The notes: generated by a model from the sequence alone, not told the origin. 29,513 nucleotides of DNA from a virus (IMGVR_UViG_2563366805_000003), one strand, 5' to 3'. Positions 809-3,016 are shown, counted from the first letter of the stretch. Numbers and translations: made by a program.

Positions 809-1522
809 TCAAAAATTAGGTGAGTAACGGACCGGGGACATAGCTCCTTTTTTTCTTAATTCATCTGGTATTTTTTTTCCAAGATAAAGATTTGCTATTT
901 CAGGTGGGGCTTCTCGACCTTCAAAACCATAGCGAGAACTTTGTGTTGCCTCAAAGTCCGGATCCTCGTCCCAGTATTTCATCGTAGGGAAATTTTCACG
1001 TGTTGATTTGAGCCATTTATCAGCAATGAAAACCCCTCGAACGATCCCCCTTACAGTAGCAAGAATGACTTCTGCTTGGCTGGCGCGAGAGACATTAATG
1101 CGCCAGCTAAATCGAACCGCATCATAAAGCTCTGAATCCTTTGCACTTCTGTTAACGGAAATCATTAATGCTTTATGATGAAATGTTATGGTTTCGGGCT
1201 GATATGTTGCTATCAACTCTTTGACATGCGCGGCGCCGAATTCATTGCTGCCAGCACCATTCATGATATTCGTTAACCCAGGGTAGGCATCAATAAGTGC
1301 TGCTTCAACTTCGTACGCCGTCTTTTCATCAGTCATTCCATGTCGATGGATGACATGGATAACTTCAAGTCCCGCTAATCTTATTTCTCTAATTTGCTTT
1401 AGCTTGTTGCTCAGTAACTCGTCATCATCAGTCGCTGCCACTTCACCGCGCATATGGGCAAATACGCGGTTACCTTTGCCTTTCCCTACATAGAAGGTGC
1501 TTCCGTCCCTCGGATCAATCAA
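809..1522 (-). pseudogene. GIY-YIG nuclease family gene, 3' part, interrupted by IS3; the 5' remnant lies at 2794-2812
   Basis: Minus-strand translation reads ...[22 protein letters not shown] (YIG/R/H part of the GIY-YIG motif) then [13 protein letters not shown]. Joining the flanks across IS3 with one copy of the ACA duplication restores [13 protein letters not shown], the GIY part. Only 11 codons are open upstream and the nearest ATG (complement of 2810-2812) is in another frame. Confidence 0.7.
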
Positions 1523-1597
1523 TCGGTATACATGATCTTACCCAGCAATAGTGGACACGCGGCTAAGTGAGTAAACTCTCAGTCAGAGGTGACTCAC

Positions 1598-1897
1598 ATG
1601 ACAAAAACAGTATCAACCAGTAAAAAACCCCGTAAACAGCATTCGCCTGAATTTCGCAGTGAAGCCCTGAAGCTTGCTGAACGCATCGGTGTTACTGCCG
1701 CAGCCCGTGAACTCAGCCTGTATGAATCACAGCTCTACAACTGGCGCAGTAAACAGCAAAATCAGCAGACGTCTTCTGAACGTGAACTGGAGATGTCTAC
1801 CGAGATTGCACGTCTCAAACGCCAGCTGGCAGAACGGGATGAAGAGCTGGCTATCCTCCAAAAGGCCGCGACATACTTCGCGAAGCGCCTGAAATGA
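1598..1897 (+). CDS. insE: IS3 OrfA (transposase N-terminal HTH/leucine-zipper protein)
   Basis: [40 protein letters not shown]... matches the recalled IS3 InsE sequence. The ORF-track start at 1589 is GTG; the ATG at 1598 is used here. Confidence 0.85.
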
Positions 1898-2760
1898 AGT
1901 ATGTCTTTATTGAAAAACATCAGGCTGAGTTCAGCATCAAAGCAATGTGCCGCGTGCTCCGGGTGGCCCGCAGCGGCTGGTATACGTGGTGTCAGCGGCG
2001 GACAAGGATAAGCACGCGTCAGCAGTTCCGCCAACACTGCGACAGCGTTGTCCTCGCGGCTTTTACCCGGTCAAGACAGCGTTACGGTGCCCCACGCCTG
2101 ACGGATGAACTGCGTGCTCAGGGTTACCCCTTTAACGTAAAAACCGTGGCGGCAAGCCTGCGCCGTCAGGGACTGAGGGCAAAGGCCTCCCGGAAGTTCA
2201 GCCCGGTCAGCTACCGCGCACACGGCCTGCCTGTGTCAGAAAATCTGTTGGAGCAGGATTTTTACGCCAGTGGCCCGAACCAGAAGTGGGCAGGAGACAT
2301 CACGTACTTACGTACAGATGAAGGCTGGCTGTATCTGGCAGTGGTCATTGACCTGTGGTCACGTGCCGTTATTGGCTGGTCAATGTCGCCACGCATGACG
2401 GCGCAACTGGCCTGCGATGCCCTGCAGATGGCGCTGTGGCGGCGTAAGAGGCCCCGGAACGTTATCGTTCACACGGACCGTGGAGGCCAGTACTGTTCAG
2501 CAGATTATCAGGCGCAACTGAAGCGGCATAATCTGCGTGGAAGTATGAGCGCAAAAGGTTGCTGCTACGATAATGCCTGCGTGGAAAGCTTCTTTCATTC
2601 GCTGAAAGTGGAATGTATCCATGGAGAACACTTTATCAGCCGGGAAATAATGCGGGCAACGGTGTTTAATTATATCGAATGTGATTACAATCGGTGGCGG
2701 CGGCACAGTTGGTGTGGCGGCCTCAGTCCGGAACAATTTGAAAACAAGAACCTCGCTTAG
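1894..2760 (+). CDS. insF: IS3 OrfB transposase catalytic (DDE) domain; expressed as an OrfAB fusion by -1 frameshift in IS3-family elements
   Basis: [32 protein letters not shown]... with DDE integrase-fold motifs ([27 protein letters not shown]). The ATG overlaps the orfA stop (ATGA). Confidence 0.9.
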
Positions 2761-3016
2761 GCCTGTGTCCATATTACGTGGGTAGGATCAACATACCAGC
2801 CAAGGTGTTCATTACTCCAGAAGGAAACTCAGTAATATCCATTTTGCAATATCTATGAATTATTTGTGAGACGTATATTAATGAACATTGCAAGGGCTCA
2901 CAACTAGTAGTGTTGAGAAATCCATCGGGAAAATGAGGCTAACCCTTTGAATTTACATAGCGCAAAAAGATACCTTTCCTCATAATGTGAGCTAATTTTA
3001 TGTTTCGTTTGATGAT

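Follow-up and report, generated by a model that had tools for sequence, protein, structure and literature searches.

A PD-T4-3/CMoRE restriction gene in an e14-like Escherichia coli prophage, split by IS3 within its catalytic motif and probably inactivated twice

Introduction

In the e14 prophage of Escherichia coli K-12, the gene that follows pinE is mcrA. Its product, McrA (EcoKMcrA), is an HNH nuclease that recognises methylated or hydroxymethylated cytosine. A second enzyme that acts on modified cytosine, PD-T4-3, was first reported from E. coli ECOR68 and was renamed CMoRE (Cytosine Modification Restriction Endonuclease) in the 2026 paper that reported its crystal structures (PMC12923530), with 9U75 and 9U8D representing the protein of O157:H7 and 9U7U and 9U7Z that of APEC O1. 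CMoRE is a single-gene type IV endonuclease that cuts the 5hmC- or glucosyl-5hmC (5ghmC)-containing DNA of T-even phages, and mutagenesis of its 'GIYxY-YIG' motif showed that each of the tyrosines Y17, Y19 and Y31 is needed for both defence and cleavage (PMC12923530). A 15-residue acidic loop covers the active site and the wild-type enzyme is autoinhibited, whereas a mutant in which four consecutive acidic residues of this loop were replaced (4A) cuts ordinary DNA and is toxic (PMC12923530). In its native host NILS69, only PD-T4-3, which acts on Tevenvirinae, and one other defence system are active (10.1101/2024.12.20.629700). A homologue from Capnocytophaga provided defence against modified T4 only, and it also cut Mom-modified Mu DNA (PMC12366544).

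Here we analysed a stretch of 29,513 nucleotides of viral DNA (IMGVR_UViG_2563366805_000003; the window, with all positions counted from its first letter) in which a gene of this kind is interrupted. A preliminary description, made from the sequence of the window, had placed an IS3 insertion inside a GIY-YIG nuclease gene at 809-2812. That extent was too short, as the pseudogene as a whole occupies 809-2842 on the minus strand, and the rest of that observation stood.

Results

The interrupted gene lies on the minus strand in two pieces. The 3' fragment (809-1532) comprises 240 codons, corresponding to residues 18-257, plus the stop codon, and carries the second half of the motif (YIG) as well as the acidic loop and the C-terminal domain that senses modifications. 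The 5' fragment (2791-2842) was delimited by allele alignment and translation and consists of 52 nt, made up of codons 1-17 and 2 further nt. A restored sequence was obtained by deleting IS3 together with one ACA copy of the target-site duplication and reading the minus strand, and the rejoined flanks gave back a GIY-YIG motif. In a global alignment, the rejoined DNA was equal to the intact allele of E. coli ECONIH4 at 1138 of 1140 positions. The product of that allele is annotated as a 257-aa 'LEM-3-like GIY-YIG domain-containing protein' (WP_000355484.1), and the translated 3' fragment matched its residues 18-257 with zero amino-acid changes. The two differences at the DNA level were a synonymous SNP (window position 1199) and a 1-nt gap; with nothing else to separate the two sequences, the junction is seamless to a degree beyond chance. 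The region around the IS3 junction itself contained zero differences from the intact allele, which indicates a clean, simple insertion.

The restored protein was a full-length member of a described family. It matched the PADLOC model PD-T4-3 (PDLC04031) over profile positions 12-255 of 256 (E=4.3e-135) and the Pfam family PF22945 (LEM-3-like GIY-YIG) with 54.2 bits (2.1e-14; cut-off 27), while the generic GIY-YIG family PF01541 scored 14 bits, under its threshold of 22.6. Against the structural database it aligned over residues 1-257 to 9U75 from E. coli O157:H7 (E=3.7e-172; 253/257 residues identical, 98.4%) and over its full length to 9U7U from APEC O1 (E=1e-150). A further full-length match was to phrog_5356 (2e-143), for which the function is listed as unknown, and an NCBIfam search returned no match for the restored protein. 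Y17, Y19 and Y31 occur in the restored sequence under the same numbering as in the structural study (PMC12923530), and the acidic loop is present as DDDE at residues 52-55, aligned to DDDD of 9U75. Proteins that are 98% (PMC12923530) and approximately 90% (10.1101/2024.12.20.629700) identical are known to cleave 5hmC/5ghmC DNA and to defend against T-even phages. On these sequence matches the interrupted gene is identified as PD-T4-3/CMoRE, a known type IV restriction endonuclease. A GIY-YIG homing endonuclease was also considered and was rejected: the match to phrog_314 was only marginal (E=0.0021, 18 bits), in contrast to that with phrog_5356, and the gene is prophage cargo located after pinE.

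The interrupting element occupies 1533-2790 on the plus strand (1258 bp) and was recognised as a complete IS3 from its inverted ends, its OrfA/OrfB domains and its identity to annotated copies. It is flanked by two copies of a 3-bp target-site duplication, the left at 1530-1532 (ACA on the plus strand, TGT on the gene strand) and the right at 2791-2793 (ACA). Its termini read 5'-TGATC...GATCA-3' and its inverted ends agree at 29 of 45 terminal positions. OrfA (1598-1897, +; 99 aa) matched HTH_Tnp_1 and OrfB (1894-2760, +; 288 aa) matched rve, the DDE integrase core; both reading frames are open and they overlap by 4 nt (1894-1897), with an AAAAG sequence upstream of the overlap at 1860-1864. 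RefSeq labels identical copies of the element with 'programmed frameshift'. Over its full length the element has 99.9% identity to copies annotated as 'IS3-like element IS3 family transposase', and full-length copies of IS3 are present in 3817 of 5426 complete E. coli genomes. With terminal inverted repeats, orfA plus orfB with an rve transposase, and a 3-bp duplication all in place, the element at 1533-2790 is a canonical IS3. Its transcription runs opposite to that of the interrupted gene.

The left copy of the duplication spans the third base of the Y17 codon and the first two bases of the V18 codon, and IS3 is therefore placed in codons 17/18 and parts Y17 from Y19 inside the 'GIYxY-YIG' catalytic motif. 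The preliminary description had proposed a simple transposition of IS3 with a 3-bp ACA duplication that split the catalytic motif of a nuclease. The boundaries, the duplication and the restored open reading frame bear out the first part of this proposal, and the published requirement for Y17, Y19 and Y31 bears out the second.

A second lesion lies upstream of the insertion. The single gap in the alignment with the intact allele corresponds to a 1-nt deletion at 2811, where one A of a plus-strand AA pair is gone; on the gene strand, GTA ATT GAA of the intact allele has become GTA AT- GAA in the window, at codon 11. The intact allele begins ATG GAT ATT ACT GAG TTT CCT TCT GGA GTA ATT GAA CAC CTT GGC TGG TAT GTA TAC, which codes for MDITEFPSGVIEHLGWYVY. 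The true start in the window is the ATG at 2842-2840, coding MDITEFPSGV, which is out of frame with the motif; the 5' remnant is frameshifted after codon 10 to give MDITEFPSGVMNTLAGM and then continues into the end of IS3. The frame of the motif has no start codon of its own and is closed by a TGA 11 codons upstream. The deletion at 2811 accounts for this arrangement, in which the motif frame is open for 11 codons only and the nearest ATG is in another frame. A 1-nt indel near 2794-2830 had been anticipated in the preliminary description, and alignment with the intact allele now places it at 2811. The non-canonical start that was offered there as an alternative is unneeded and was dropped, as the intact allele has a normal ATG 16 codons upstream of Y17.

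The deletion appears nowhere else among the sequences compared. An 87-nt query carrying it matched 832 E. coli records with 0 exact matches, and among the matches listed for this query each was 98.9% identical and spanned 88 nt in the record. A 'plasmid' contig of strain CX15, annotated as frameshifted, was considered as a second carrier of the same deletion and rejected; AATTG is intact there and the frameshift lies elsewhere. It is conceivable, though unlikely, that the deletion at 2811 arose during sequencing or assembly and that only the IS3 insertion is real. Its uniqueness among the 832 matching records and its position in a dinucleotide run would fit an error, and problems in the assembly could be hinted at by an odd, unique IS3-internal junction with which the window begins on its left side. 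However, errors do not typically cluster in runs of only two bases, the remainder of the 1140 nt is only one SNP from the closest allele, and a neutral indel in a gene that is already dead would be unremarkable. Even if the deletion were an error, the IS3 insertion alone still kills the gene.

The junction at the left edge was described separately. Window positions 1-63 are an internal piece of IS3 (nt 206-268 of the element, identical to window 1738-1800) with no IS end, and at 63/64 this piece is fused directly to the 3' remnant of a tail-fibre gene (64-190) just upstream of pinE. Possible microhomology at the fusion is only 1-2 nt, and the 63/64 junction was absent from every complete E. 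coli genome. Either a deletion associated with IS3 or a chimeric assembly could have produced it; in the former case the prophage of this strain would have suffered IS3-linked damage at a further site. A second example of IS3 damage at this end of the prophage comes from a different E. coli strain (NZ_LR882057.1, 5083-6899), where a copy of IS3 lies inside pinE and PD-T4-3 is missing from the slot.

The gene is carried next to the end of a prophage. A pinE-type serine DNA invertase gene at 194-748 on the plus strand (Pfam Resolvase, 2.6e-52, and HTH_7; pinE in relatives) is the last core gene of an e14-like prophage, and the cargo slot that holds the broken gene follows directly downstream. 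In relatives, an invertible tail-fibre segment and Mu-like baseplate genes precede pinE, an arrangement shared with e14 of K-12. Annotated neighbours of intact copies are, among others, pinE, a fragment of a capsid gene, an AraC regulator and hypothetical proteins. Window DNA is 99% identical to E. coli chromosomes over approximately 21 kb. The slot after pin holds interchangeable modification-dependent type IV enzymes, McrA in K-12 and CMoRE here. No methyltransferase was annotated within approximately 4-6 kb on either side of the gene in two intact relatives. A cognate methyltransferase had been suggested as something to look for in related genomes, but a type IV enzyme acts alone and its absence is what would be expected. 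A type II restriction-modification system with a GIY-YIG endonuclease was rejected on the same absence of an annotated methyltransferase nearby and on the literature, which assigns the enzyme to type IV.

To the right of the gene the window contains two uncharacterised ORFs followed by an integrase-bounded element. The first ORF (3347-3766, +; 139 aa) has a signal-peptide-like N-terminus, MKYCYLIILSLTISSAQA, corresponds to WP_001333214.1 in relatives and had no family match; it is kept beside the second, 488-aa ORF (4082-5548, +). The latter, WP_000723924.1 in relatives ('hypothetical protein'), is flanked by the prophage end and by the integrase of the next island, and searches of Pfam, PADLOC, PHROG and PDB sequences gave no match for it. 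Visual inspection of its N-terminal part showed a D...(Q)CK pattern that recalls PD-(D/E)xK nucleases, and in other strains (L003, L004 and L005) its place is taken by an AraC regulator or by a gene for a 611-aa reverse transcriptase. The 488-aa ORF could be uncharacterised defence cargo. The element at 6153-22400 has counterparts of 99% identity in several E. coli chromosomes and encodes a tyrosine integrase, an AlpA-type HTH protein, AntA/AntB, Ash and a TOPRIM plus DUF927 primase-like protein, together with P22-type DNA-ejection proteins and a lytic transglycosylase; no capsid/tail module is present in the window. Further to the right are a pRiA4b ORF-3-like protein (25780-26322), a CbtA-family type IV toxin (27273-27677, -) and an antirestriction PF03230 protein (28693-29364, -), the toxin and the antirestriction protein being typical of the ends of CP4-like islands.

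In other genomes the locus is mostly uninterrupted. A megablast search with the rejoined 1140 nt found it uninterrupted in 810 complete E. coli genomes, out of 827 that carry the 5' end of the gene. A search of 5426 complete RefSeq genomes of E. coli yielded neither IS3 junction, and the exact left junction (43 nt) was found nowhere in a collection of species-representative genomes. Both lesions are private to this strain, being absent from the other complete genomes. The exact intact protein is present on at least 1000 contigs and the truncated 237-aa product on 12-17. Damaged copies in other E. coli assemblies and metagenome contigs carried independent early lesions: a change of codon 9 from GGA to TGA (G9*; L004), of codon 12 from GAA to TAA (E12*; L011) and of codon 16 from TGG to TGA (W16*; L005), and a 46-nt deletion (L009). 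In addition, four draft contigs (L006-L008 and L010) break off at codons 13-16, just before the 237-aa ORF, where other repeats may have inserted. These four were considered as further copies of the same IS3 insertion and rejected, as they read 5-10 nt beyond the insertion point in the window and represent different events or assembly breaks. The set of early lesions was obtained from a look-up of the truncated product, which is able to return N-terminally damaged copies only, and it therefore shows that the gene decays and not that it decays faster than its neighbours.

Full-length homologues of PD-T4-3/CMoRE with 38-45% identity are also encoded by jumbo phages (approximately 255-285 kb) of Serratia, Pectobacterium, Pantoea and Pseudomonas hosts (records H163-H177; e.g., Serratia phage Moabite, 6406-7161, and Pseudomonas phage OBP, 158703-159449), where they are annotated as GIY-YIG or homing endonucleases. 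These phages may use them against competing phages with modified DNA.

Discussion

The locus is in all likelihood a doubly inactivated PD-T4-3/CMoRE pseudogene, carried as cargo of an e14-like prophage and broken by IS3 and by the loss of a base in codon 11 in the course of non-adaptive decay. A canonical IS3 transposed into codons 17/18, creating its usual 3-bp duplication and cutting off the remainder of the gene from its first 17 codons and the region upstream, and one base was lost independently in codon 11. Judged from the sequence, either lesion alone would be expected to abolish the protein, and T-even phages should no longer meet CMoRE-type restriction in this strain. Whichever lesion came first, the other was then neutral. 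The cause was probably non-adaptive decay of prophage cargo in an IS3-active genome and not selection.

Adaptive loss would require that carrying the nuclease imposed a cost or self-toxicity on this strain, for instance after the acquisition of DNA bearing a modification that it attacks, and that knock-outs were selected. Two independent lesions in one short gene and the independent early nonsense and deletion lesions in other strains are what such selection might produce; the enzyme without its acidic loop attacks ordinary DNA and turns toxic, and as a homologue cuts Mom-modified Mu DNA, a conflict with resident modified DNA is conceivable. Selection against a possibly toxic nuclease had likewise been put forward in the preliminary description. 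However, toxicity was reported for the 4A loop mutant only and the loop is intact here, 810 of 827 complete carrier genomes keep the locus uninterrupted, and the intact protein outnumbers the truncated form (at least 1000 contigs compared to 12-17). The second lesion was neutral after the first, and two lesions hence do not amount to two selected events, while the list of other lesions is biased by the way in which it was obtained. Adaptive loss in this strain is accordingly judged improbable. G9*, E12*, W16*, the 46-nt deletion and the four contigs that end at codons 13-16 could be taken as hints of a wider process, a recurrent selected knock-out of the gene near its 5' end through conflict with resident or incoming modified DNA, and the lesions in the window would then be one instance of selected defence loss; we consider this reading very improbable. 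Expression of the 3' fragment from TTG 1522 or ATG M44 by IS3 read-out, as a nuclease-dead protein that binds 5hmC or oligomerises, is scarcely credible, for although its open 237-codon reading frame does not differ from the wild type and includes the sensor domain and the published oligomer interfaces (PMC12923530), the product would be without the first beta-strand and Y17, neither the TTG nor M44 has a Shine-Dalgarno-like sequence in front of it, the minus strand of 700-3100 gave no promoter-like site and no precedent is known.

When 700-3100 was scanned for promoters and terminators, the minus strand gave no site, so that neither the native promoter nor an IS3 read-out promoter was located, and the number of sites was no higher than in shuffled sequence. 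The 3' ORF, whether begun at TTG 1522 or at ATG M44, is probably silent.

Read as a decaying pseudogene, the locus represents a described defence gene of solved structure that a described element has put out of action. Its consequence beyond correct annotation is little. A defence-system finder that scans the 237-codon 3' ORF could score the strain as PD-T4-3-positive although the gene is dead, and the strain is predicted to be sensitive to T-even phages as far as the PD-T4-3/CMoRE layer is concerned. Two known patterns are seen at this locus as well, the exchange of type IV enzymes after pinE and the erosion of such cargo by IS3 activity.

The inserted element has the same 1258 bp as IS3 of E. 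coli (IS3 family), the same TG...CA ends with imperfect terminal inverted repeats, the same orfA/orfB overlap with AAAAG upstream, the same HTH and rve (DDE) domains and the same 3-bp target duplication, and its insertion site is the sole novelty among 5426 complete genomes. With McrA (EcoKMcrA) of e14 in E. coli K-12 the interrupted gene shares the cargo slot directly after pinE at the prophage end, whereas McrA is annotated as a different enzyme under a different name and its gene lies on the opposite strand relative to pinE. The restored protein has the same length (257 aa), tyrosines, acidic loop and C-terminal sensor domain as PD-T4-3/CMoRE, differs from 9U75 by four conservative substitutions (T51A, E55D, Q169K and N197H) and is likewise encoded by a single gene with no annotated partner. 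The copy in the window differs from these intact genes in being dead, with IS3 at codons 17/18 and a frameshift at codon 11.
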